64,000 nucleotides of DNA, taken from a virus (Duplodnaviria; Heunggongvirae; Uroviricota; Caudoviricetes). This document shows, piece by piece, positions 7,039 to 44,173 of this stretch. The notes beneath the pieces are model-generated. The model was given only the letters and a program-made list of their open reading frames with translations. It ran no database searches and had not been told where the DNA came from. Positions within the stretch are counted from its first letter, which is position 1; every line of letters starts with the position of its first letter. The DNA lies in IMG/VR virus record IMGVR_UViG_3300042870_001427, positions 100,147 to 164,146 of that record. One strand, written 5' to 3'. The translations under genes were made by a program, and so were the position numbers.

Positions 7039-9855
7039 ATGCCATACATAGGTAACCAACCGTTCGGAAAGACAGTACGAACAGTAACCACAGAAACAAT
7101 CACCAGTGTTAAAACTGCCTATTATCCAAACGGTGGATACATGGCCGGTTACGTTGACGTATATGTCAACGGGGTACGTCTATCAGAATCTTTAGACTTC
7201 ACCGCCACCGATGGTTCATTAGTCACCTTACTTTATTCACCAAGCATAGGGGATACGGTAGAAATAGTAACGTATGGGTCGGTAGAAATTGCCAATGCCG
7301 TCAGACGTTCAGGTGATACTTTTTCTGGTAACGTCTATGTTGGTTCCAATGTATACATTTCTACCAGCACCATCAGTGTCGGTAATGCTACCGTTAACAC
7401 CCAGATAACCGCCGGTAACATAGCCTTAAACGGCTCCACATTGACCATTGGTAACAGTACCGTCAATACCGTGTTTACCGGGGATACGGTGACTGTTGGT
7501 GGTACATTGAGTCTAGGTAACACCTCCATTACTGGGACGGCCAATGTAACTACAGCCATCAACGTCGGTGCAAACGTGTCTATGAATACTACCTCTATAC
7601 GGGTTGGTAATAGCACGGTCAACACCTACATTGTTTCCGATACCATTTACGGTCCTTCGACTCTTTACATTGATCCAGCCGCCGCCGGCGACAATACCGG
7701 TCTGGTTATAGTAAAAGGTGACTTACAGGTTGACGGTACGACATTTACTATCAATAGTGCCAACGTTACGGTTAACGATAAGAATGTAGTGTTGGCCAGT
7801 GGTGCTATTAATAATGCTGCCACCGATGGGGCCGGGCTTACTATTTTCGGCACCAATGCTAACCTGACGTATAATGCCACAGGTAACAACTTTGAAATGT
7901 CTCGTGGGTTAAGCATCACCGGGACGGCAAACGTTTCTGTTGGATTGAATGTAGGTGCTAATGTCAATTTAAGTACCAGTCAAATTAACGTCGGTAATAG
8001 TACGGTTAATACAGTTATATCAGCTGCTTCTCTAACCACTACCTCAAATACCGTTTCATTAGGCACAGCTGCATACGTCGTATCCAATGGTAATGTAGGT
8101 ATCGCGACGAATTCACCTGCTACAAAACTTCACGTATCAGGTGGCACTATTAGAAACTCTGGAACAAATGGTGTTTTGCAGTTGATGGATGGCAATGTCA
8201 CTGGCGGTGTAAAAATTGCATCATATAACCCTGCTGCTAGTGCTGATGGATATTTAGCCTTTGAAGGCTACACCATAGAATACGGTAGATTTAATTCCAG
8301 CGGTAACTTGGGTATTGGTACAAGTTCACCGGAGGATAGGCTTCATGCTGTAGCGGCAGTGGCAGCAGGGTTGTCATTGCAAGCAAGTGGTACTGGTGGT
8401 AGCACATGGAGAATTCTATCTACAGATAATGCTGCTAGTTTGGGCGGTGGATATCTTGGGTTTAATAATGGTAGTTATCGCATGGTGCTCGACTCCAGCG
8501 GTAACTTGGGTTTAGGTACTACAAGTCCATATTCAGCAGCGGGATATTCTTCGCTTACATTGAATAATACTACTGGTTCTCAAATTCGGATGCGTTCTAG
8601 CGGAACTGATATTGGTTTGATTTTCAATACCGCAAGTTCATTCAATGTTTATACCAGCGGCGCTATACCTTTAGTTCTTTCAACAAACGACACAGAACGA
8701 GCCCGTATTGACTCCAGCGGTAACTTGGGCTTGGGAACTACAACACCTTCAACTGGTAAATTTAGCGATGCGTCATATGCGTTTTTAATTCAATCTGCAA
8801 GTACAAGCACAGGAACTAATATTTTTGCCAGCAATTCTGATAACTCAAAATTTGTTGGCTTCTGGAGTGGTCATTCGGGGGCAGAGCCTGCAGTTGGGGT
8901 TAAGACTGGTAATGCGTTTACATTTGGTAAATGGGCTGCAATAAACGGGACTGGCGGTTTTACCGAAAATATGCGTATCGACTCCAGCGGCAACTTGAGT
9001 ATAGGTGGTTTTTCTCCTAATGCCTGGAGTACTGGATATAGAGCCATAAATTTATTCAGTTCTAATTCATTAGGCTTAGCTGGTTCAGATTATGGGTCGC
9101 AATTAACTAACAATTGTTATTATTCTGCTGCAAATGAGTGGACAAGAGTAGGTGCGTCATATGGTGCAGGTAGGTATGAGCAGTTTAATGGATACCATGC
9201 TTGGTACGGTAATGCCGCAGGCGCCGCGGGAGCATTTACTCCTACGTTTAATATGATCCTATCAACCGCTGGTTACTTAGGTATAGGTACGTCTAATCCT
9301 TCTGAAAAAATACATGTATACGGTACGGCAGCATCTGGAAGCAACCAAGGTCCTCGCATTAATTTACAATATTCCGGTACTTCCGGGGCTGCTGAATCAT
9401 TAATAAACTTTTTGGACTTTAGAGGTGCAGTAAACGCGGCTATAGGTAATAACTTACAAGATGATGGAGTTGGAACAGCGGCTGCCCATATGGTATTTAA
9501 AACTGCCGTTAGCGGTACATTATATGAGCGCATGCGCTTGGATACTAGCGGCCAATTACAATTTCCTCTAACTTCTCATGGTACAGCACAAATATCAAAC
9601 GTTTATTCTTTAAACGTTGCAAGTGGTGGTACTGTTGACTTTGCAAATTTTTCTGGAATGATTATTGTAAATAATTGGAATCAAGGTTCAGTTTCTTTGT
9701 GGATAGCTGGTGGGGGTACATATACGTTAGTAGCTGGTATTGCTGCCTATTATGGTAGTCTTAGTTTTACTTCTGGATTCTATAGATGGACTTCTAACGC
9801 ACCTTCAACTATGACCTATACCTTTACGGCCATTCGCACCCGTACTAACGCATAA
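7039..9855 (+). CDS. Tail fibre protein, paralogue 3 (938 aa), with a repeated [MR]IDSSGNLG[IL]GTxSP motif.
   Basis: It shares the GTANVSVGLNVGANVNLSTSQINVGNSTVNTVISAASLTTTSNTVSLGTAAYV module with ORFs 3828 and 10208. The SSGNLG motif recurs more than 6 times. Confidence 0.7.
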   Translation: MPYIGNQPFGKTVRTVTTETITSVKTAYYPNGGYMAGYVDVYVNGVRLSESLDFTATDGSLVTLLYSPSIGDTVEIVTYGSVEIANAVRRSGDTFSGNVYVGSNVYISTSTISVGNATVNTQITAGNIALNGSTLTIGNSTVNTVFTGDTVTVGGTLSLGNTSITGTANVTTAINVGANVSMNTTSIRVGNSTVNTYIVSDTIYGPSTLYIDPAAAGDNTGLVIVKGDLQVDGTTFTINSANVTVNDKNVVLASGAINNAATDGAGLTIFGTNANLTYNATGNNFEMSRGLSITGTANVSVGLNVGANVNLSTSQINVGNSTVNTVISAASLTTTSNTVSLGTAAYVVSNGNVGIATNSPATKLHVSGGTIRNSGTNGVLQLMDGNVTGGVKIASYNPAASADGYLAFEGYTIEYGRFNSSGNLGIGTSSPEDRLHAVAAVAAGLSLQASGTGGSTWRILSTDNAASLGGGYLGFNNGSYRMVLDSSGNLGLGTTSPYSAAGYSSLTLNNTTGSQIRMRSSGTDIGLIFNTASSFNVYTSGAIPLVLSTNDTERARIDSSGNLGLGTTTPSTGKFSDASYAFLIQSASTSTGTNIFASNSDNSKFVGFWSGHSGAEPAVGVKTGNAFTFGKWAAINGTGGFTENMRIDSSGNLSIGGFSPNAWSTGYRAINLFSSNSLGLAGSDYGSQLTNNCYYSAANEWTRVGASYGAGRYEQFNGYHAWYGNAAGAAGAFTPTFNMILSTAGYLGIGTSNPSEKIHVYGTAASGSNQGPRINLQYSGTSGAAESLINFLDFRGAVNAAIGNNLQDDGVGTAAAHMVFKTAVSGTLYERMRLDTSGQLQFPLTSHGTAQISNVYSLNVASGGTVDFANFSGMIIVNNWNQGSVSLWIAGGGTYTLVAGIAAYYGSLSFTSGFYRWTSNAPSTMTYTFTAIRTRTNA

Positions 9856-9864
9856 GGAATTAAT

Positions 9865-10167
9865 ATGGAATACAAAAAAGTAAAAATTGACGGGCAACAG
9901 AATCACTTTGAAATTACCGTAGAAAAAGACGGCAAAGAAATTACATTTATTGCAGCCGTTGCATCTGAAGACCAATTGGATGAAGTTGTTCAATATCATT
10001 TGGATTCACTAGATAAACCAATCCCTGTATACACTCCTACCTACAGTGACTTACGTAGGTCAGAATACCCATCGTTTGCCGATCAATTTGATTTGCTGTA
10101 TCACGGCGGCTATGATGAATGGAAGGCAGCCATTGATACTATTAAAGCAAGATATCCTAAACCTTAA
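9865..10167 (+). CDS. Hypothetical protein (100 aa).
   Basis: ORF with a GGAAT ribosome-binding site, lying between fibre genes. Confidence 0.4.
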   Translation: MEYKKVKIDGQQNHFEITVEKDGKEITFIAAVASEDQLDEVVQYHLDSLDKPIPVYTPTYSDLRRSEYPSFADQFDLLYHGGYDEWKAAIDTIKARYPKP

Positions 10168-34849: not shown

Positions 34850-35079
34850 CAAAGTTTCTTTCAGAGTATACAGATGGTGGACCAGGGTGTATGAGGGATG
34901 ACTGTATGATACAGGAGAATGGTCCTAGTACTACTACCTCTATGTCCTACCCTCCAACATACAACAAACAAGGGGTAAATTTAAACCCCGATATGAATAT
35001 AACTACGACCAATAAGAGATGTCTCTCCTGTGGTAAGAGTTGGTCGGAAAGGTGGCAGAATGGTATTAAAATTAGTTGA
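34846..35079 (+). CDS. Small hypothetical Cys-containing protein.
   Basis: ORF overlapping the gp46 stop; contains CLSCGKSW. Confidence 0.3.
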   Translation: MTKFLSEYTDGGPGCMRDDCMIQENGPSTTTSMSYPPTYNKQGVNLNPDMNITTTNKRCLSCGKSWSERWQNGIKIS

Positions 35080-35578
35080 TCCGAGTAACGAATTATTACA
35101 CAATAAGATTCCTACTTTTGACTTTAAGGATCCACCTACCGACCCGGTTATGCTTGCCCGTGACTTACTTGAGACATTAATTGAACGTAAGTGTATAGGC
35201 CTATCGGCTAACGAATGTGGGCTACCTTATCGTGTATGCGTCTTTCATACCCAAGACCCATTAGTGATCTTTAATCCAAAGTTGATTGACGAAACAACCG
35301 AACATATCATATTAGAAGAGACATGTGCCTCTAACACTAACATGGTTGTTAAGATTAAGAGACCAAAAATAATAAAGGTAAGGTATCAAGATGTAACAGG
35401 TGAGTTTCATACAGAGAAATTTATCGGTATGACAGCCCGTGCCATCTTACACGAACTTGATCATTTAAATGGGATCAGCTATACTAAAAGAGCTAACCCT
35501 GTGCACCTACAACGGGCACTTAATAAGAAGAAGCAACTCGATAGACAACATGCACGTGAACTAAAACAAGCTATATAA
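35060..35578 (+). CDS. def: Peptide deformylase-like protein.
   Basis: The three PDF motifs are present: GLSANECG (GxGxAAxQ-like), EETCAS (EGCLS-like) and HELDHLNG (HExxH metal site). The start was chosen at MVLKLVDP. Confidence 0.7.
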   Translation: MVLKLVDPSNELLHNKIPTFDFKDPPTDPVMLARDLLETLIERKCIGLSANECGLPYRVCVFHTQDPLVIFNPKLIDETTEHIILEETCASNTNMVVKIKRPKIIKVRYQDVTGEFHTEKFIGMTARAILHELDHLNGISYTKRANPVHLQRALNKKKQLDRQHARELKQAI

Positions 35579-35608: not shown

Positions 35609-36466
35609 GTGTTAATGTCGAAATTAAAAGTATCGGAGTTGTTCTACTCCATTCAAGGTGAGGGTCGCTATATGGGCGTACCTTCTGTCTTTCTAAGAAC
35701 CTTTGGCTGTAATTTTACCTGTGATGGCTTTGGTATGCCGGCTGGTGAGAAGAGTCAAGAAAGAGAAGTGATAGCACACAATGCAGACAATTACAAGACT
35801 TATAAAAGTCTCCCTCTTGTTTCTACTGGTTGTGATTCATATGCTTCTTGGGATGTTCGTTTTAAGCATCTCAGTCCTGTTATCCCTACTGACTCATTGG
35901 CCGATTCGATTGTGGATCTCCTACCGTACAAGCAATGGGAAGACGAACATCTCGTAATCACTGGCGGTGAGCCCTTACTGGGATGGCAACGAGCATACCC
36001 TGATCTCCTATCCCATCCTAAAATGGACACTCTAAAAGAGTTGACATTTGAGACAAATGGCACCCAGGAACTATCACAGGAGTTCTATAACTACCTCGGT
36101 GAATGGACATTTGCAAGAGGCATGTATGAGAACCTAACCTTCTCTGTCTCCCCCAAGCTATCGGCATCAGGCGAGAAATGGGAAGATGCAATTAAACCCG
36201 ATATTGTGGCACAATACTCTATGATTGGTTATACCTACCTTAAGTTTGTAGTAAGTGATATGCTTCACGTGCAAGAAGCAGAGGAGGCAGTTAATGAGTA
36301 TCGCAAAAAAGGCTTTGATGGCCCTGTTTACCTTATGCCTGTTGGTGGGGTTGAACGGGTGTACGCTCTTAATAATAGACAGGTTGCTGAATACGCCATG
36401 AAAAAAGGATGGAGATATAGTGACCGTTTACAAGTACCGCTATTTAAAAATGAATGGGGAACCTAA
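35609..36466 (+). CDS. queE: 7-carboxy-7-deazaguanine synthase QueE-like (radical SAM).
   Basis: ELFYSIQGEGRYMGVPSVFLRTFGCNFTCDGFG corresponds to the QueE N-terminal signature (FxSIQGEG…FxRxxGCNLxC). Confidence 0.8.
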   Translation: MLMSKLKVSELFYSIQGEGRYMGVPSVFLRTFGCNFTCDGFGMPAGEKSQEREVIAHNADNYKTYKSLPLVSTGCDSYASWDVRFKHLSPVIPTDSLADSIVDLLPYKQWEDEHLVITGGEPLLGWQRAYPDLLSHPKMDTLKELTFETNGTQELSQEFYNYLGEWTFARGMYENLTFSVSPKLSASGEKWEDAIKPDIVAQYSMIGYTYLKFVVSDMLHVQEAEEAVNEYRKKGFDGPVYLMPVGGVERVYALNNRQVAEYAMKKGWRYSDRLQVPLFKNEWGT

Positions 36467-36942
36467 TGGCAAAATATATTTCAACAAAGACCTACAGACA
36501 CTTAGGACCTGTAGCATATAGACAGTGGAGGGCTGATAGTCATTGTAATCTGATTCACGGATATGCTCTATCCTTCCATTTTGAATTCGAATGTGATACC
36601 TTGGATGCCCGTAACTGGTGCGTTGACTTTGGTGGTCTAAAGGATCTAAAGTATAACTTAGAAGACTGGTTCGATCATACGTTGTTGGTTGCACAAGATG
36701 ACCCCCAGCGTGAGGAGTTACTGAAACTAGGTAAACTAGGATTGGCTAAAATCACCGAGGTAGAGAAGACCGGATGTGAAGGATTGGCTGACTTCCTATA
36801 CGAATACATCAACACAATCATGCTACCGGGCTGGGGTGAAGAAGCCAAACGTGTATGGTGTAGCAGGGTTGAGGTGAGGGAGACGGACTCAAACATGGCA
36901 ATGAGAGTCGGTCATAGAGAAGATAATGAATTTGTGGGATAA
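36454..36942 (+). CDS. queD: 6-carboxytetrahydropterin synthase QueD-like.
   Basis: CNLIHGYALSFHFEFEC corresponds to the QueD CxxxHGH zinc motif. Size is 162 aa. Confidence 0.8.
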   Translation: MGNLMAKYISTKTYRHLGPVAYRQWRADSHCNLIHGYALSFHFEFECDTLDARNWCVDFGGLKDLKYNLEDWFDHTLLVAQDDPQREELLKLGKLGLAKITEVEKTGCEGLADFLYEYINTIMLPGWGEEAKRVWCSRVEVRETDSNMAMRVGHREDNEFVG

Positions 36943-36944
36943 TT

Positions 36945-37637
36945 ATGGAACGATATTTTTCTGATGTGTTACGTGAGAGAATGAAGCAAGACGGTAAACG
37001 GTTCTTTGCTTGTGATAATATTTCTGAATACCTTGACGATCATGGTCGAGAGTTTTTAGTGAATGAGTTAACAGAGAAGTTCAATGGTGTATTAAGTTCC
37101 TTACTCATTGATACCGAGAATGATCCTAATAGTAAGGGTACGGGGAAGCGTCTGGCTAAGATGTATGTAGACGAGATCATGTCCGGTCGCTATTACCCCG
37201 AACCAGACTCTACTGCATTTCCTAACGACGGAACAGAACGCTATACAGGTATGCTGGTGGTGAGGGCAGAACTTAAATCAATGTGTTCCCATCACCATCA
37301 ACCGGTAAGGGGGATTGCATACATTGGTATCATTCCAGGTAATAAGGTGATTGGTCTGTCCAAGTATGCACGGGTGGCTCAATGGCATGCACGTAGAGGT
37401 ACATTACAGGAAGAACTGTGTACCCATATTGCTAACTCTATCATGAAATCGACTGAATCACCTGACGTTGCAGTATACATTGCCGCACGTCACGGGTGTT
37501 GTGAGAATAGAGGAATCAATGCCCATTCCTCCCTCACCCAGACAACCGTCCTTCACGGTCAATTCCATCAGGCAGACGTAAAGAAAGAGTTCTTCGATAA
37601 CATTGCCTTACAGCAAACATATAACGAAAAACTTTAA
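36945..37637 (+). CDS. folE: GTP cyclohydrolase I FolE-like.
   Basis: MCSHHHQPVRGIAYIGIIPGNKVIGLSKYARVAQWHARRGTLQEELCTHIANSI aligns with the FolE core (MCEHHLVPF…IPNGKVIGLSKLARIV…RRLQVQERLT). Confidence 0.85.
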   Translation: MERYFSDVLRERMKQDGKRFFACDNISEYLDDHGREFLVNELTEKFNGVLSSLLIDTENDPNSKGTGKRLAKMYVDEIMSGRYYPEPDSTAFPNDGTERYTGMLVVRAELKSMCSHHHQPVRGIAYIGIIPGNKVIGLSKYARVAQWHARRGTLQEELCTHIANSIMKSTESPDVAVYIAARHGCCENRGINAHSSLTQTTVLHGQFHQADVKKEFFDNIALQQTYNEKL

Positions 37638-37842: not shown

Positions 37843-38093
37843 AATCAAGCTCCAAGCCAAGGGTCAAGAAAGATACTATTGGTGAGGAGGCAATGACCGA
37901 ACTGTTCAAGGCACTAGAAACGGCCGATCTTGAAGAGTTTAAGTCTATGTGCTATGATATTATTGAAAGTTCAAGCGCATCTTCTACTACAAAGACTAAA
38001 TTTATTAAGATTATAGGTCAATCAGAGTCTAAGAAGTTATTGGTGTTTACTATGACTAACTATTTTCTAGCTGGTGAAGGGAAAGGTGTATGA
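37824..38093 (+). CDS. Hypothetical protein (89 aa).
   Basis: ORF in the same orientation, coupled to its neighbours. Confidence 0.35.
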   Translation: MADSITQSSSKPRVKKDTIGEEAMTELFKALETADLEEFKSMCYDIIESSSASSTTKTKFIKIIGQSESKKLLVFTMTNYFLAGEGKGV

Positions 38094-38491
38094 ACGGTAA
38101 GATGTACTTAGCACGCTTTACTAATAAGCAGACCAAAGAGGTTGATTTCTTTAAGTTTGGGCATACCTCCTCATACGATGCAATGGATAGGTTTACCTAT
38201 GATCCCGAACAGTATAATAAATGGGATATCAAGATCATGAAGACCGTTTATGGTCCATTGGAGGAGATGAAGGGTGTGGAGGAGACATTTAAAGCATTCT
38301 ATCCTAAGAACTTATGGATTGAAGATAAGGTATCAGGAGTAACAGAGATTGTTAAATTAACTAGACCGGAGATTGATCGTATCATCGATCGTATGACCTG
38401 GCTCAATACTGTATACTATCAAAAGCGTGAGCGTGAAAAGGCTCAAGAAACTAAAAAACTATTAGAGGTATTTGATGAAAATCGCCCATGA
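38090..38491 (+). CDS. Hypothetical protein (133 aa).
   Basis: ORF coupled through GTATGAACGG. Confidence 0.4.
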   Translation: MNGKMYLARFTNKQTKEVDFFKFGHTSSYDAMDRFTYDPEQYNKWDIKIMKTVYGPLEEMKGVEETFKAFYPKNLWIEDKVSGVTEIVKLTRPEIDRIIDRMTWLNTVYYQKREREKAQETKKLLEVFDENRP

Positions 38492-39260
38492 AGCACCCCT
38501 GTGTATCTTTAACCGTGTACAAGAGGTTACAGATTATGACTATGCCCTTGTTCATCTGTTTGAAGAGAATGAGGAGTATTGGGATAAGTTTGTACGTGCT
38601 AAGGAGATAGGTCGAGAGATTATTCTTGATAACTCTATCTTTGAGTTGGGTGAGGCCTTTGAGGCTGATAAATTTTATCCTTGGATTGAAAAACTACAAC
38701 CTACTTACTATGTCATACCTGATGCATTGGAGAATGCTGAGAAGACAGTCGCTAATGCCAAAAGTTGGAAGCCAGTTAACGGGTGTAAGTCTATCGGAGT
38801 AGTGCAGGGTAAGACATATGAGGAGATTAAATGGTGTTACCAGGAAGTAGAACCATTGGTTGATAAGGTTGCTATCTCCTTTGACTATAGTTTCTTTATT
38901 AACCCTGAACTCAATGGCTATCTTCCTACAAAGTACCATCACTACATGTATGGGCGAGATGCACTCATCCATCGTCTACTAACTGATAACGTTATCAACA
39001 CCGATAAGCCCCATCACCTACTTGGTTGCGGACTGCCACAGGAGTTCGATAGCTATTCTGATTACGAATGGATTGATAGCGTAGATACATCTAACCCAGT
39101 AGTTGCCGCTATCAAGGGAATGAGGTATAATGGTAGGAACGGACTAGAAGATAAACCTTCCCAGAAACTCCATACCATGATCGATAGTAAACTTAGTTCA
39201 TACGAACTACAATTGGTACTCTATAACATCGAATGCTTTAGGGCTATTTGTAATGGCTAA
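38472..39260 (+). CDS. dpdA: DpdA-like 7-deazaguanine DNA transglycosylase (tRNA-guanine transglycosylase superfamily).
   Basis: HHLLGCGLPQEF resembles the TGT motif (Y)LMGVGKPED. DSVDTSNP resembles the TGT D(M)FDCV(M)PTR region. It lies inside the Que gene cluster. Confidence 0.55.
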   Translation: MMKIAHEAPLCIFNRVQEVTDYDYALVHLFEENEEYWDKFVRAKEIGREIILDNSIFELGEAFEADKFYPWIEKLQPTYYVIPDALENAEKTVANAKSWKPVNGCKSIGVVQGKTYEEIKWCYQEVEPLVDKVAISFDYSFFINPELNGYLPTKYHHYMYGRDALIHRLLTDNVINTDKPHHLLGCGLPQEFDSYSDYEWIDSVDTSNPVVAAIKGMRYNGRNGLEDKPSQKLHTMIDSKLSSYELQLVLYNIECFRAICNG

Positions 39261-39807
39261 GAAGTGGATTGCATTCTTTAGTCAGACAGGTTCGGAGATA
39301 GTCAACCTATCTTATGCCCTGGGCGTCAAGCCAGACCTCATTGTTACTAATAACATGCTAGAGGATAAGTGGAAATACCATCCCGATCTCAGAACTATGG
39401 GTACTATCATGGCAGCCAAGCATGATAGGTTGATGGCTTATATGATGGATAACGTGATCTATAATCCAGATGATGTTATAATCACCCTCCATGGCTATCT
39501 TAGAATCATTCCAGCCGAGGTGTGTGGTAAGTATAAGATGCTCAATGGGCATCCAGGTGCAATCGATTTGTATCCAGATTTAAAAGGTAAGGATCCCCAG
39601 GAGAGAACATGGGAGAACAAAGGGAACTATAAGTTCTTAGGCAGCGTAGTACATGAGGTTGTACCAGAGGTAGATGCAGGTAAAATCATAAAGAGCGTTC
39701 ACCTTACCAATAATGCGATCTCATTAGAAGAAACATTTGCTATGTTAAAGAGCACATCCCTAGCGGCATGGATATTTGCAATGAAGGAAATGGGTATATG
39801 CGTATAG
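39253..39807 (+). CDS. Formyltransferase-family protein (PurN/Fmt-like catalytic domain); candidate DpdN-type deazaguanine formyltransferase.
   Basis: IAFFSQTGSEIVNL matches the PurN N-terminal iavliSGsGSNL motif. MLNGHPGAIDLYPDLKG matches the iNiHPSLLPxfxG motif, and HEVVPEVDAGKII matches the HxVxexvDxGpii motif. Confidence 0.5.
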   Translation: MAKKWIAFFSQTGSEIVNLSYALGVKPDLIVTNNMLEDKWKYHPDLRTMGTIMAAKHDRLMAYMMDNVIYNPDDVIITLHGYLRIIPAEVCGKYKMLNGHPGAIDLYPDLKGKDPQERTWENKGNYKFLGSVVHEVVPEVDAGKIIKSVHLTNNAISLEETFAMLKSTSLAAWIFAMKEMGICV

Positions 39808-40337
39808 GTATAACGGGTGCTCAATCAGTAGGTAAGACTACTCTATTGAATGCTTTACGTTCGGAGAAACTATTCTCTGAAAATAACTTTGTTATATGCG
39901 ATGAGGTTACTCGCCGGGTGAAGAGTTATGGGTTACCTATCAATGAGAGTGGGACTGATACAACCCAGCGCCTCATTATGAATGAGCATATCGTAAATGT
40001 ATTCATGCATGAAAGAATGCTTACCGATCGTACTGCATTGGATGGGTTGGTCTATACTACCTATTTGTATAAGCATGCAAAGGTCAATATGCAAACGGTT
40101 GCCTATGCTACTGAAGTGTTCAATAAGGTATGGAAGCAATACAATCACGTATTCTATATTGAGCCAGAATTTGATATAGTAGATGATGGAGTACGTAGTG
40201 TAGATATAGACTTTAGAAACGAGATAGCAGATATGTTTGAGTCTATTATCGTTAATAAGAAACTATCCATGCATCGAGTTAAAGGTTCTGTTCGTAACAG
40301 AGTCAATTCGATTATGGATTTACTAGAAGGAAGATAA
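39768..40337 (+). CDS. Deoxynucleoside-kinase-like P-loop kinase.
   Basis: Walker A motif GITGAQSVGKTTLLNAL, followed by HERMLTDRTALDGLVY, which resembles the dNK ERSxxSDR motif. Confidence 0.5.
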   Translation: MDICNEGNGYMRIGITGAQSVGKTTLLNALRSEKLFSENNFVICDEVTRRVKSYGLPINESGTDTTQRLIMNEHIVNVFMHERMLTDRTALDGLVYTTYLYKHAKVNMQTVAYATEVFNKVWKQYNHVFYIEPEFDIVDDGVRSVDIDFRNEIADMFESIIVNKKLSMHRVKGSVRNRVNSIMDLLEGR

Positions 40338-41260
40338 TGAATAATCAAGATGAATTAAATAAACTAGTATCCGTTCACCTGGGTAAAGCCGGTGATGGTA
40401 CTGTAGTTAAACCATATGTAACACCAGATGAAGTCGATCCAAGCCTTCTAGTATCTGTACCCCGTTCACTTAATCGTGAACAGTATGGTATTGAGGAAGG
40501 TAACTTGCCCTTTGCTGGATGTGATGCATGGAATGCATATGAGTTTTCTACTCTATTGAAGAACGGGTTCCCTGTATCGGGTTGGCTTAAGTTCTCTTAC
40601 AGTTCCAGCACACCCAATATTGTAGAGAGTAAGTCAGTTAAGTTGTATCTTAACTCCTATAACATGGCATGTGTTGTAGAAGAGCTGCAAGACCTTTGGA
40701 GGTTAGAGGACAAGATTGCCGCCGATCTATCAAGGGCTGTTGGTGGGGAGGTTGACGTCTGTCTGTTCCTAGGTGATGTAGATACAACACGCCCGATCAT
40801 TGGCGATTTTACAGCACTAGAAACATACTGTAATGTAGGTGGTATGGAGTTCAATAACTATAACGAGAGTGCAGATATTCTTGAAGTGGTTCCAAGCATA
40901 GGTAGATACGAGAGATGGCGTTCGAACTCACTTCGTTCCAATTGCCGAGTTACTAATCAACCGGACTGGGGCGATGTATACATTCACATCAAGGGCGATC
41001 AATCAGTAACACCCGAATCGTTACTCCGATATATTATCTCTATGAGACGTGAGAATCATTTCCATGAAGAGATTTGTGAATGTATTTACAAGCGTATTAA
41101 AGACTTAATCAATCCTAAAGAGTTGTTTGTAGCATGTCTGTATACACGCCGGGGTGGTATTGATATTAATCCAGTACGTGCAACTGATAGCCGACTCATG
41201 CATGTATACGGTTCAATTGTTAACGCAGGGCTTCCTTGCACTAAAACGGCGAGACAATAA
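40337..41260 (+). CDS. queF: NADPH-dependent 7-cyano-7-deazaguanine reductase QueF-like (bimodular YqcD type).
   Basis: The QueF motif VESKSVKLYLNSY (E-S/L-K-S-x-K-L-Y) is present. The catalytic Cys motif CRVTNQPDWG matches CPVTGQPDF. Size is 307 aa. Confidence 0.8.
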   Translation: MNNQDELNKLVSVHLGKAGDGTVVKPYVTPDEVDPSLLVSVPRSLNREQYGIEEGNLPFAGCDAWNAYEFSTLLKNGFPVSGWLKFSYSSSTPNIVESKSVKLYLNSYNMACVVEELQDLWRLEDKIAADLSRAVGGEVDVCLFLGDVDTTRPIIGDFTALETYCNVGGMEFNNYNESADILEVVPSIGRYERWRSNSLRSNCRVTNQPDWGDVYIHIKGDQSVTPESLLRYIISMRRENHFHEEICECIYKRIKDLINPKELFVACLYTRRGGIDINPVRATDSRLMHVYGSIVNAGLPCTKTARQ

Positions 41261-41496
41261 TGGAATTTGAAACACAGCCTATTGATAAGAATGTAGAAGC
41301 CGTTCGTAAGTTACTTTGGCAGCGTATGGGCGCAGGGTATGCAAAGTACGGCACCACTACTGAACGAACTGATATTGATATGTTAGGATGGCTACAGCAC
41401 CTACAAGAAGAACTGTTAGATGCTGCAGTATATGTTGAAAGGTTAAAAGATGAACTTAGAACAAGCGCTAGCAAAGCTCCCAGAAACGCCATTTAA
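41260..41496 (+). CDS. Hypothetical protein (78 aa), overlapping the queC start.
   Basis: ORF coupled at TAATGG. Its 3' end overlaps queC by about 47 nt, so the call is uncertain. Confidence 0.3.
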   Translation: MEFETQPIDKNVEAVRKLLWQRMGAGYAKYGTTTERTDIDMLGWLQHLQEELLDAAVYVERLKDELRTSASKAPRNAI

Positions 41497-42199
41497 TGTT
41501 GTATCGGTCCTATCTGGAGGACTTGATTCAACTATCCTCACCTATATCTTAGTTAAGAAGTATGGTAAGGATAGAGTGTTCGCACTCTCATATGACTATG
41601 GACAAAAGCAGGTACGTGAATTGGCTATGGCAGCAGCTACTTGTAGTCACTTAAACATACCACATAAGATTTTACATCTTGGCATCCTTGGTGATATTGT
41701 AAAGAACGTATCTGCTAACATTGGCGGTACAAGTGTTGCAATGCCAACGATCAAAGACGTGCTTGGTGACCCACAACCAAAGACGTACGTGCCGTTTCGT
41801 AATATGATCCTTAACTCACTGGCATTCTCATTCGCGGAATCTAATAAGGCATCTCATGTCTTTACCGGCTTGCAGGTGCATGACGAATATGGCTACTGGG
41901 ATACATCTCAACGCTTTGTCGATAGTATGAATGCTGTTGCCGAACAAAACCGTTCGCATAAGGTTAGACTGGAGGCACCATTCTCTACCCTATCCAAGTA
42001 CGATGAGTTGATGATTGCCAACGAGCTGGGCAATGTCGAGCTATCATATACCTTGACATGCTATAACCCAGACTCGGCAGGTAAGAGTTGTGGTAAGTGT
42101 CCTTCATGTAGTGAACGTATTGCCAACTTTGCCAAAGCTGGCATTAAAGATCCAATTCCGTATAATGTTGATATACCTTGGGACAAGTTAATTAAATAA
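41450..42199 (+). CDS. queC: 7-cyano-7-deazaguanine synthase QueC-like.
   Basis: PP-loop motif VVSVLSGGLDSTI and C-terminal zinc cluster CYNP…CGKCPSCSER are present. Size is 249 aa. Confidence 0.85.
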   Translation: MNLEQALAKLPETPFNVVSVLSGGLDSTILTYILVKKYGKDRVFALSYDYGQKQVRELAMAAATCSHLNIPHKILHLGILGDIVKNVSANIGGTSVAMPTIKDVLGDPQPKTYVPFRNMILNSLAFSFAESNKASHVFTGLQVHDEYGYWDTSQRFVDSMNAVAEQNRSHKVRLEAPFSTLSKYDELMIANELGNVELSYTLTCYNPDSAGKSCGKCPSCSERIANFAKAGIKDPIPYNVDIPWDKLIK

Positions 42200-42828
42200 T
42201 GTGTGCAATTATAGGATCGTTTAATAAAGACAAACTGATTGAGTTGATAGATCTTAATAGCTATCGAGGCAGTCATTCGTTTTCTTTTTCTGTTATACCG
42301 TTGCATGGTGACTTACATGTGATGGTTAAAGGAATGGGCACATTAGATAAAAACTTACTTGATCTAATACAGGATGGGGGCTATGGTATCGTTCACATAC
42401 AGGCGCCAACTACAGAGGCAAAAGACTTTGATAGTGTTCATCCGGCAAGGGAGTGGTTTACTGCTCTCTGGCATAACGGTATCATAAAGGCAAATTATGT
42501 TAAAGAGATGCAAGCACGCTTTGGCAACGATACGAACTGGGATACGCAATTGTTACTTCGAGCTGTCAATACGTCTAGAGATGAAATTAACAACGTGGAC
42601 GGATCTTTTAGTTGTCTGTGGTATGACGGGGCTGGAGCTTATCTTTTTAGGAATGATATTAGCCCTATGTTCTTCGATAATGAGTTAAACATTTCATCAA
42701 CGAAGTTTGAAGGTAGTATACCAACACCACCAAATAAGTTTTTGTTTATGGACTTTGAGACCAAGGCGCTATATAATAGAGGTGAGTTTAAAACGGTAGA
42801 AAATCCGTACTATTTTGGAGATGATTAA
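42199..42828 (+). CDS. Class-II (Ntn) glutamine amidotransferase-like protein, stand-alone, adjacent to queC.
   Basis: It begins MCAIIG, and Cys2 is the hallmark Ntn nucleophile of GATase-2 / asparagine-synthase N-domains. Its start overlaps the queC stop (TAATGTG). Confidence 0.55.
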   Translation: MCAIIGSFNKDKLIELIDLNSYRGSHSFSFSVIPLHGDLHVMVKGMGTLDKNLLDLIQDGGYGIVHIQAPTTEAKDFDSVHPAREWFTALWHNGIIKANYVKEMQARFGNDTNWDTQLLLRAVNTSRDEINNVDGSFSCLWYDGAGAYLFRNDISPMFFDNELNISSTKFEGSIPTPPNKFLFMDFETKALYNRGEFKTVENPYYFGDD

Positions 42829-42830
42829 GC

Positions 42831-43331
42831 ATGAAGCATATCTTAGGACCAGATTCAAGGTCTACCCTAACTGCTGTCCAAGAAGGCGACAGCCAACCCA
42901 ACGCCATTGACCTAAGGGTCGACAAAGTATTCAAAGTTAATGATGGACTATTCGAAGTATCAAACGAACACAAAAAGCACAGAGGATCAATCGAGATCAA
43001 ACCTGACTTGGAAGGATACTTTAACCTACCCATCGGCCATTACGAGGTCGTTATGGAGAACATTATCAGTGTGGGACAAGGCGAGGCAGGATGGGTCATT
43101 ACCCGCAGCACTCTTAACCGTAACGGTCTTTTTCTTACATCTGGCTTGTACGATAGCGGCTATCATGGTGCTATGGCCGGTATGCTTCACGTTACAATTG
43201 GCCAGGCTAGGATTAAAAAGGGTACGAGGATAGGACAGTATTTAAGTTTTGATGCAGAGTCATTAGGAATGTATGATGGTGACTATGGTATTAATAAAGA
43301 GCATGATAAAAAATATGGAGTAACACAATGA
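42831..43331 (+). CDS. dCTP deaminase/dUTPase-fold protein.
   Basis: NAIDLRV and GLYDSGYHGAMAGMLHV match the dUTPase/DCD motifs (xIDLR, GxIDxGYxG). Confidence 0.55.
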   Translation: MKHILGPDSRSTLTAVQEGDSQPNAIDLRVDKVFKVNDGLFEVSNEHKKHRGSIEIKPDLEGYFNLPIGHYEVVMENIISVGQGEAGWVITRSTLNRNGLFLTSGLYDSGYHGAMAGMLHVTIGQARIKKGTRIGQYLSFDAESLGMYDGDYGINKEHDKKYGVTQ

Positions 43332-44173
43332 AAATAGAAGTACAGATTGCAGAATTACAGAAGAAGAAACTCTTCGTTGCCACACCCATGTACGGGGGTC
43401 AGTGCGCTGGTATGTATTGCCGTTCAGTTGCTGACTTGTCTGCATTCTGCGCCAAGTACAACATCCCCTTACAGCTTTACTATCTCTTTAATGAGTCGTT
43501 GATCACCCGGGCACGTAACTATTGTGTGGATGAGTTCATGCGCAGTGATGCTACTCACTTGATGTTTATTGATAGTGATATTGGCTTTAACCCCCAAGAC
43601 GTTATCGCCTTGATGGCGTTGATGACAGACGAGAGTGACTATGACGTCATTGGCGGTCCATATCCTAAGAAATGTATCAGCTGGGAGAAGATTAAACTGG
43701 CTGTTGATAAGGGTGTAGCTGACGAGGATGCTAACCTATTAGAGAAATACGTAGGTGACTATGTGTTTAATCCTAAAGGTGGGCAGAAGGAGATCCCATT
43801 AGGTGAGCCTGTAGAGGTGTTAGAAATTGGTACCGGGTTCATGATGGTACGCAAAGAAACATTCACCAAGTATGCAGCTGCCTATCCTGAGCTGAGCTAC
43901 AAACCCGATCACGTTCGTACAGAGCACTTCGATGGTAGTAGAGAGATCCATGCATACTTTGATTGTATCATTGATCCTGAAAGCAAACGTTATCTGTCTG
44001 AGGACTATAACTTCTGTTATCATGCCCAGAAAATTGGATTGAGAGTCTGGTTCTGTCCTTGGATGCAACTCCAGCACGTTGGTAGTTATATCTTCGGTGG
44101 TAGCTTGGCTGACCTGGCAACCATTGGTGCCTCTGCTACTGCTGACTCTAGTCAATTGAAAAAGAAAAAGTAA
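43328..44173 (+). CDS. Glycosyltransferase-like protein (GT-A fold, DxD).
   Basis: LFVATPMYGG…LITRARN…HLMFIDSDIGF gives a Rossmann-like N-terminal region with a DSD metal motif. Confidence 0.45.
   Translation: MKIEVQIAELQKKKLFVATPMYGGQCAGMYCRSVADLSAFCAKYNIPLQLYYLFNESLITRARNYCVDEFMRSDATHLMFIDSDIGFNPQDVIALMALMTDESDYDVIGGPYPKKCISWEKIKLAVDKGVADEDANLLEKYVGDYVFNPKGGQKEIPLGEPVEVLEIGTGFMMVRKETFTKYAAAYPELSYKPDHVRTEHFDGSREIHAYFDCIIDPESKRYLSEDYNFCYHAQKIGLRVWFCPWMQLQHVGSYIFGGSLADLATIGASATADSSQLKKKK

Follow-up and report, generated by a model that had tools for sequence, protein, structure and literature searches.

The 64,000-nucleotide stretch of Caudoviricetes DNA analysed here (positions 100,147 to 164,146 of IMG/VR record IMGVR_UViG_3300042870_001427; hereafter the window) contains, at 39253..39807 (+), an open reading frame (ORF) whose product is, judged by homology, an orthologue of DpdN, the predicted formyltransferase that Flavobacterium phage vB_FspM_immuto (immuto) encodes. 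This enzyme probably formylates preQ1 as a small molecule, after which a DpdA3-type enzyme would insert the base, and the phage DNA would carry 7-(formylamino)methyl-7-deazaguanine (fdPreQ1). The system is of a known kind, here in a new, uncultured T4-like phage, and its identification was to be expected; the conserved kinase, the gene fusions and the family size described below were not found in the literature searched.

The ORF is a genuine gene that is conserved and evolves under purifying selection: it starts with ATG and encodes a protein of 184 amino acids (aa), the identical protein is found on seven metagenome contigs, and dN/dS values of 0.21-0.28 were obtained against two close relatives. 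The protein matches the Pfam family PF00551 (Formyl_trans_N) above the gathering score (30.1 versus 26.1 bits, E 4.9e-7) and PHROG 9240, a family named glycinamide ribonucleotide (GAR) formyltransferase, while its sequence matches in the PDB are PurN chains, namely 3kcq (E 1.4e-5) and the human and E. coli GAR transformylases (1e-4 to 1e-3). An AlphaFold2 model built on 70 homologues reached a mean predicted local distance difference test score (pLDDT) of 94.6 and superposes in Foldseek over its full length on the PurN structures 4s1n and 5cjj, with template modelling scores (TM) of 0.76-0.80 and E 3e-11; WbkC, PurU, ArnA and Fmt rank below PurN in the same search. Where the preliminary description had seen a short catalytic domain, the model thus shows a complete single-domain enzyme of PurN size and no fragment, with a pI of 6.6 and no extra domain.

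The formyltransferase fold and the three motifs named in that description are present. The stretch S10-Q-T-G-S-E15-I-V-N-L stands where PurN has SGNGSNL, N98-G-H100-P-G-A-I-D-L-Y-P stands where PurN has N-I-H-P-S-L-L-P, and H134-E-V-V-P-E-V-D141-A-G143-K-I145 is an exact fit to HxVxxxxDxGxI. Residues N98, H100 and D141 align with N106, H108 and D144 of E. coli PurN, which we take from established enzymology to be its catalytic residues; R84 aligns with R90 in the GFMRIL folate segment of PurN, and H134 with its H137. Loss of the Asn/His/Asp triad on alignment, which would have counted against the proposal of the preliminary description, was not observed: the triad is invariant in 73 of 73 distinct homologues (38-97% identity). 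Across the same sequences H134, G143, W5, S10, G13, E15, K/R113-D114-Q116 and W173 are likewise invariant or nearly so, and 72 of them have a basic residue at position 166, on the C-terminal helix.

When 50,697 phage records were searched with tblastn, only immuto was matched, at the gene immuto26A_67 (gp067; 38.9% identity, 97% coverage, E 6e-34), whose product was named DpdN in PMC10516641. In immuto DNA, fdPreQ1 replaces 100% of G according to liquid chromatography-mass spectrometry, with zero residual preQ1 deoxynucleoside (dPreQ1) (PMC10516641). The two proteins (184 and 175 aa) have fold family and triad in common, and the two phages share a DpdA3 gene upstream, a P-loop kinase gene followed by queF downstream, and a complete FolE-to-QueF pathway. 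They differ in that immuto has a 50-aa ORF between dpdA and dpdN (order DpdA, 50-aa ORF, DpdN, ‘thymidylate kinase’, QueF) and a phosphoribosyltransferase and a MazG-like gene in its cluster, neither of which was found in the 64-kb window, whereas only the window phage has a Gat-like gene beside queC. The carriers also differ, the one described here being an uncultured T4-like myovirus with homologues of gp44, gp45 and gp46, while immuto has a family A polymerase. At the DNA level, a megablast search of 38400-41300 against phages found no close relative among cultured phages. The criterion dividing group 1 DpdN proteins from the formyltransferases of groups 2 and 3 is co-encoding with DpdA and FolE-to-QueF (PMC10516641), and the window protein combines such co-encoding with full-length similarity to gp067 and a PF00551 fold bearing the triad, as group 1 proteins do. 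The DpdN-type assignment of the preliminary description is therefore supported by homology to immuto DpdN, by the common gene order and by a complete preQ1 route in the window. A search for literature after PMC10516641 on DpdN, fdPreQ1 or DpdA3 found none.

The gene directly upstream (38475..39260, +; 261 aa from the ATG at 38475, the TTG at 38472 being a mechanical ORF start) encodes a DpdA3-type deazaguanine transglycosylase homologue, with 8 nt of overlap between its stop and the start of dpdN. Its product (phrog_19058) is 54.9% identical to immuto DpdA and 38-39% identical to the protein of the Campylobacter CP220 group over 100% of the length; it has no Pfam or PDB sequence match, and an 18-sequence profile finds no tRNA-guanine transglycosylase (TGT) in the PDB. 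Complete G replacement has been linked to the DpdA3 subfamily, whose TGT likeness rested on HHpred and whose activity on DNA could not be reconstituted (PMC10516641). Downstream, a bimodular, NADPH-dependent QueF for the reduction of preQ0 to preQ1 is encoded at 40337..41260 (+; PF14819 and PF14489, TIGR03138 with 234 bits). It carries ESKSVKLY, a Cys in CRVTNQPD (Cys-x7-Asp) and HEE, of which ESKSVKLY is the NADPH motif and the Cys the catalytic residue. The preliminary description had placed the formyltransferase gene between dpdA and queF; dpdA is indeed its direct upstream neighbour, whereas on the other side a kinase gene (39798-40337) intervenes before queF.

This arrangement is widely conserved. 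At least 555 IMG/VR contigs carry a DpdN relative, and on the cellular side four matches were found among 185,579 species genomes, all of them on short contigs of metagenome-assembled genomes that also encode DpdA3; the family is virus-restricted. A large protein collection yielded 1,565 clusters at E<=1e-3, with lengths of about 180 aa and identities of 54-96% throughout the best 120, and a profile search of 1.84 billion representatives gave 240 clusters at E<=1e-30 (clustering at 50% identity) and 889 at E<=1e-3, pointing to a diverse family that is well separated from canonical PurN. The rarity attributed to this derivative thus holds for the literature, with four named proteins, and not for metagenomes. 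In the 80 best related viral contigs (denominators are testable cases), QueF is encoded at most 3.5 kb downstream of the DpdN gene in 70/70 loci, the P-loop kinase gene lies between the two in 66/70, and DpdA3 is found at most 1.5 kb upstream in 62/68; the trio of DpdN, kinase and QueF is retained where DpdA3 is not adjacent. The carrier in the window is T4-like, with a gp44 that shares 65% identity with its counterpart in Stenotrophomonas phage DLP6, and with genes resembling gp45 and gp46, and a related 162-kb contig (L086) encodes Gp23, UvsY and UvsW. The occurrence of the DpdA3-DpdN-kinase-QueF cassette both in T4-like phages and in immuto, with its family A polymerase, implies horizontal transfer between phage lineages.

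PurN (E. coli P08179; PDB 1cde, 4s1n, 5cjj) resembles the window protein in its whole-protein fold (TM 0.74-0.80), its Asn/His/Asp triad, its GxxRI folate segment and its SVH motif, and its substrate logic would be similar as well if the nucleotide acceptor discussed below is right, the formylated group then being in both cases a primary amine carried by a scaffold of (deoxy)ribose-phosphate type. The gene could be regarded as an ordinary PurN-type auxiliary metabolic gene, a GAR transformylase boosting purine synthesis, which came to lie in the cluster by coincidence; PurN provides the top structural and sequence matches, relatives are annotated as PurN at source, and the name of PHROG 9240 points the same way. 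We consider this very improbable. Identity to PurN is only about 20%, and the PurN equivalog TIGR00639 gave 30 bits against a cutoff of 150.1. The SGNGSN loop of PurN is replaced by an invariant SQTGSE loop, the HP motif is followed by a 3-residue insertion with an invariant LKGKDPQ, and the C-terminal helix conserves other residues (K/R166, S169, W173); at the positions of the PurN GAR site (G11-S12-N13, Q/K170, E173) a loop is present and reads SQTGSE, the alignment of the C-terminal helix being uncertain within one residue. The genomic context in DpdN loci consists of deazaguanine genes, and not of purine genes as for PurN. The constant linkage to QueF, the fusion of DpdN to DpdA3 (see below), the near absence of the family from cellular genomes and the mere 889 clusters retrieved by its profile all argue against a plain PurN.

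Other members of the formyltransferase fold fit less well still. Membership of Fmt failed on length (184 versus about 310 aa), on the presence of PF00551 without the C-terminal tRNA-binding domain, and on structure (fold rank 47, TMt 0.47); membership of PurU failed with 16 bits for TIGR00655 against a cutoff of 286, and with the lack of an ACT domain. The triad might nevertheless serve another reaction, either hydrolysis of formyl-tetrahydrofolate in the manner of PurU or formylation of a different amine, for example that of an amino sugar nucleotide, given that PurU, WbkC and ArnA have the fold in common and appear among the structural matches, and that a gene with faint glycosyltransferase similarity lies 3.5 kb downstream (43328-44173, +; 281 aa, phrog_1574). 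Such a role is extremely unlikely: the protein has neither an ACT domain nor the C-terminal domain of sugar formyltransferases, PurN outranks all three in the fold search, and the strict partners are QueF, DpdA3 and the kinase, the glycosyltransferase-like gene being conserved in 19 related loci only. Moreover, fdPreQ1 is the modification of the one cultured phage that carries the gene.

The gene between dpdN and queF (39798..40337, +; 179 aa from the ATG at 39798) encodes a P-loop protein with a nucleoside/nucleotide-kinase fold (PF13521, AAA_28), and shares 10 nt with the end of dpdN and 1 nt with the beginning of queF. It is better conserved than DpdN (70-95% identity among the best 120 relatives), and its model (pLDDT 85.4) matches deoxyadenosine kinases, the ribosylnicotinamide kinase domain of NadR, deoxycytidine kinase (dCK) and thymidylate kinases (Tmk) with TM 0.65-0.74. 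On the basis of this model, it is a predicted kinase with a small-molecule kinase fold. A role as a partner of DpdA resembling DpdB, the ParB-like ATPase required by bacterial DpdA, is disfavoured, as the model resembles the above kinases and not ParB-like NTPases. The cultured phages with homologues of the P-loop protein are immuto, Streptomyces phages and members of the Campylobacter CP220 group. In CP220 (gp055-gp057; locus L096, 5050-7543) an HD-phosphohydrolase::P-loop protein, DpdA3 and an AAA_28 kinase form a block in which the kinase directly follows DpdA3, and the DNA of this phage contains 100% 2'-deoxy-7-amido-7-deazaguanosine (dADG). PMC10516641 makes no mention of a kinase.

Fusions were sought among representatives of the DpdN family (proteins P0365, P0407, P0336, P0368, P0302, P0317 and P0380). 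DpdA3::DpdN was found twice, each time on a single contig, with a DpdA part 41-42% identical to the DpdA3-type protein of the window, and DpdN::AAA_28 kinase once, again on a single contig. A Tmk-like kinase::DpdN fusion has seven cluster members on at least nine contigs from independent sources. A fusion of DpdN to a DUF1599-like domain (‘nucleotide modification associated domain 1’) was found in three clusters, one with eight members; PF07659 scored 24.8 bits against a gathering threshold of 25 in one representative, and a profile of the domain found no relative in the PDB. These last two kinds of fusion, with the Tmk-like kinase and with the DUF1599-like domain, occur repeatedly on many contigs. 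One 44-kb contig of a phage that is not T4-like (L093) encodes at 7216-10103 DpdA3, the Tmk-like kinase::DpdN fusion, a transporter of the Vut_1/YhhQ family and MazG, and no FolE, QueC, QueD, QueE or QueF within the 17 kb read. The Vut_1/YhhQ transporter family is one that we take to carry queuosine precursors, and this locus suggests that the L093 phage uses imported or host-made preQ1. MazG adjoins the module in immuto too. A small phosphoribosyltransferase (PF00156, 130-149 aa) recurs in or near the clusters of DpdN phages (L001 5893-6288, L086 19579-20025, L094 493-942 and several IMG/VR loci) and was not found in the 64-kb window; its role could be the recycling of released guanine or the synthesis of a deazaguanine nucleotide.

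In the pathway that we infer, with its donor, acceptor, order of steps and product, preQ0 would be made from GTP by the phage FolE, QueD, QueE and QueC, with ammonia probably provided by a Gat-like subunit, and QueF would reduce it to preQ1. DpdN would then use Asn98, His100 and Asp141 to formylate the 7-aminomethyl nitrogen before the base enters DNA, the formyl donor being, by family homology, N10-formyl-tetrahydrofolate. Its acceptor could be free preQ1, though a preQ1 (deoxy)nucleotide with a 5'-phosphate is more likely. The DpdA3-type enzyme would put the deazaguanine into DNA, and virion DNA would contain fdPreQ1 in place of G, probably completely. Regarding the donor, PMC10516641 writes 5-methyl-tetrahydrofolate; this compound cannot donate a formyl group. 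The same study left open whether the acceptor is base, nucleotide or DNA.

A small-molecule acceptor is favoured for several reasons. The first concerns efficiency: immuto lacks residual dPreQ1, while DpdM, a protein of Cellulophaga phage phiSM and Vibrio phage VH7D that was proposed to methylate preQ1 already in DNA, reaches about 5% conversion (PMC10516641). Belonging likewise to phage DNA modification clusters, DpdM acts on the 7-aminomethyl nitrogen of preQ1, as DpdN is predicted to do; it differs from DpdN in its unrelated fold and cofactor, in having been validated in vivo, in its partial conversion and in accompanying low-level DpdA types (PMC10516641). The second concerns the protein itself, a bare PurN fold with a pI of 6.6, which has an invariant S-x-T-G-S loop (S10-E15) at the beta1-alpha1 junction and a basic residue at position 166; it is at the beta1-alpha1 loop that PurN binds the 5'-phosphate of GAR. 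The third is that the fusions to Tmk-like, AAA_28 and DUF1599-like domains point to nucleotide chemistry, and the fourth that in L093 a YhhQ-type transporter and MazG accompany DpdA3 and kinase::DpdN, the part read containing no Que biosynthesis genes.

Alternatively, G in double-stranded DNA would first be exchanged for preQ1 by DpdA3, and the resulting dPreQ1 would be formylated in situ by DpdN. Post-replicative formylation is one of the two options left by PMC10516641, and the DpdA3::DpdN fusions would also suit it, with both enzymes acting on DNA next to each other. This order of events appears unlikely. It is hard to match with zero residual dPreQ1 in immuto DNA, against the low conversion achieved by DpdM, and with a minimal fold of near-neutral pI that lacks an added nucleic-acid-binding domain; the robust fusions of DpdN are to nucleotide kinases and the DUF1599-like domain and not to DNA-binding modules, and DpdA3 activity on DNA has never been reconstituted.

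Several points weigh against formylation of preQ1 as a small molecule by this protein, or against parts of the pathway. The Pfam alignment spans residues 76-148 only, so the link to formyltransferases at the sequence level is modest. The function of DpdN was only predicted in PMC10516641, from annotation and gene position, and fdPreQ1 in the DNA of this uncultured phage is a prediction from its genes. The argument from the phosphate loop uses a sequence alignment and the secondary-structure position in the model, with no ligand complex. Three of the fusions, the two DpdA3::DpdN and the one DpdN::AAA_28, are single-contig observations. Finally, DpdA3 was viewed as acting after replication (PMC10516641), which leaves formylation of dPreQ1 in DNA possible.

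If DpdN acts on a nucleotide, its neighbours can be arranged into a wider scheme, which we put forward tentatively and regard as possible, though doubtful: complete G replacement in DpdA3-type phages might follow a nucleotide-pool route, built by analogy like the synthesis of hydroxymethylcytosine in T4, in place of post-replicative exchange. An NTP phosphohydrolase (MazG, HD, DUF1599-like or DCD-like) would make dGMP and remove dGTP, DpdA3 would exchange the base on the nucleotide, DpdN would formylate the preQ1 deoxynucleotide as a substrate with a GAR-like 5'-phosphate, the conserved AAA_28 or Tmk-like kinase would phosphorylate the product towards a triphosphate for the polymerase, and the small phosphoribosyltransferase would recycle the released guanine. 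What suggests this route is the kinase fold between dpdN and queF, the kinase beside DpdA3 in Campylobacter phages, with an HD::P-loop protein alongside, the kinase and DUF1599-like fusions, MazG beside the module in L093 and immuto, and the phosphoribosyltransferase genes in many related clusters. For Campylobacter phages, a modified-dGTP route has been proposed earlier.

The T4 hydroxymethylcytosine pathway employs gp56 dCTPase, gp42 dCMP hydroxymethylase and gp1 dNMP kinase. The analogy lies in the complete replacement of one base and in the grouping of a folate-dependent one-carbon enzyme with an enzyme of NTP pyrophosphatase type and a dedicated nucleotide kinase; it ends where the proteins are concerned, as there are no homologous ones, a putatively TGT-like DpdA3 is present here, and action at the nucleotide level is only proposed. 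The neighbours also fit another scheme, in which exchange is post-replicative and the phosphoribosyltransferase and kinase recycle released guanine into GTP for FolE.

The remaining genes of the cluster would supply the precursor. QueE, the 7-carboxy-7-deazaguanine (CDG) synthase, is encoded at 35609..36466 (+; phrog_2076, E 1.9e-54), QueD, the 6-carboxytetrahydropterin (CPH4) synthase, at 36454..36942 (+; PF01242, phrog_2389), FolE, the GTP cyclohydrolase I, at 36945..37637 (+; PF01227, E 6e-38), and QueC, the preQ0 synthase, at 41450..42199 (+; PF06508, E 1.5e-51). The start of the next gene (42199..42828, +) overlaps the queC stop by 1 nt; it encodes a Gat-like protein of 209 aa (phrog_12378), similar to N-terminal-nucleophile (Ntn) class-II glutamine amidotransferases, with an MCAIIG N-terminus, an HNGII motif, a weak match to the GlmS glutaminase and no Pfam or NCBIfam match. 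Vibrio phages nt-1 and VH7D likewise have the QueC-Gat pair, and Pseudomonas phage pf16 encodes a homologue of the Gat-like protein. The protein probably supplies ammonia to QueC. A diversion of the pathway to archaeosine (dG+) by this gene was considered and judged unlikely, since nt-1 has QueC-Gat and yet mainly preQ0 deoxynucleoside (dPreQ0) in its DNA, and since QueF is here always present and intact.

A conserved protein of 78 aa with no assigned function is encoded at 41260..41496 (+), between queF and queC as in most related loci. It matches PHROGs of unknown function only and has a strongly conserved motif, G(Y/F)xKYGxTTERxD...WxQHLxEELxDAxVY. A likeness to MazG or DUF1599 seen by eye found no Pfam match and, with a 15-sequence profile, no PDB match, and a likeness to the DUF1599-like domain fused to DpdN was rejected with an hhalign probability of 0.3%. 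At the cluster edge, a divergent protein of the dCTP-deaminase/dUTPase (DCD/dUTPase) family is encoded at 42831..43331 (+; PF22769, PRK02253 with 80 bits against a cutoff of 130); the gene is adjacent in 41 related loci, and its membership of the pathway is uncertain.

From dpdA through dpdN, the kinase gene and queF to the 78-aa ORF, each stop overlaps the next start, as is also the case between queC and the Gat-like gene, which indicates one translationally coupled unit. Promoter and terminator scans gave nothing above chance, and no Rfam family reached its gathering score in the window (1-64000), hence no preQ1 riboswitch was found. A 133-aa ORF (38090-38491, +) lies directly upstream of dpdA and overlaps it; some of the related loci conserve this ORF, and no family in Pfam, PHROGs or NCBIfam matches it. 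A peptide deformylase gene (35030-35578, +; PF01327, E 3e-29) lies directly upstream of queE, and such a gene is also near the cluster in L086.

Among natural DNA bases, fdPreQ1 is one of the most recently described, and its formyltransferase has so far been a prediction. The DpdN module, so far represented by a single cultured Flavobacterium phage and three metagenomic proteins, now belongs to a large family restricted to viruses, and biochemical work can draw on hundreds of its orthologues and on natural fusions. The presence of this family in T4-like and other phages implies that genomes with full G substitution and resistance to restriction are a common feature of aquatic viromes. In addition, the near-constant kinase-fold gene and the recurring phosphohydrolase and phosphoribosyltransferase genes raise anew the question of where the most efficient deazaguanine systems act, on DNA or on the nucleotide pool. 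The kinase, the fusions and the size of the family make this choice between pre- and post-replicative modification directly testable, and the answer bears on how base replacement becomes complete, as well as on the enzymatic production of modified DNA.

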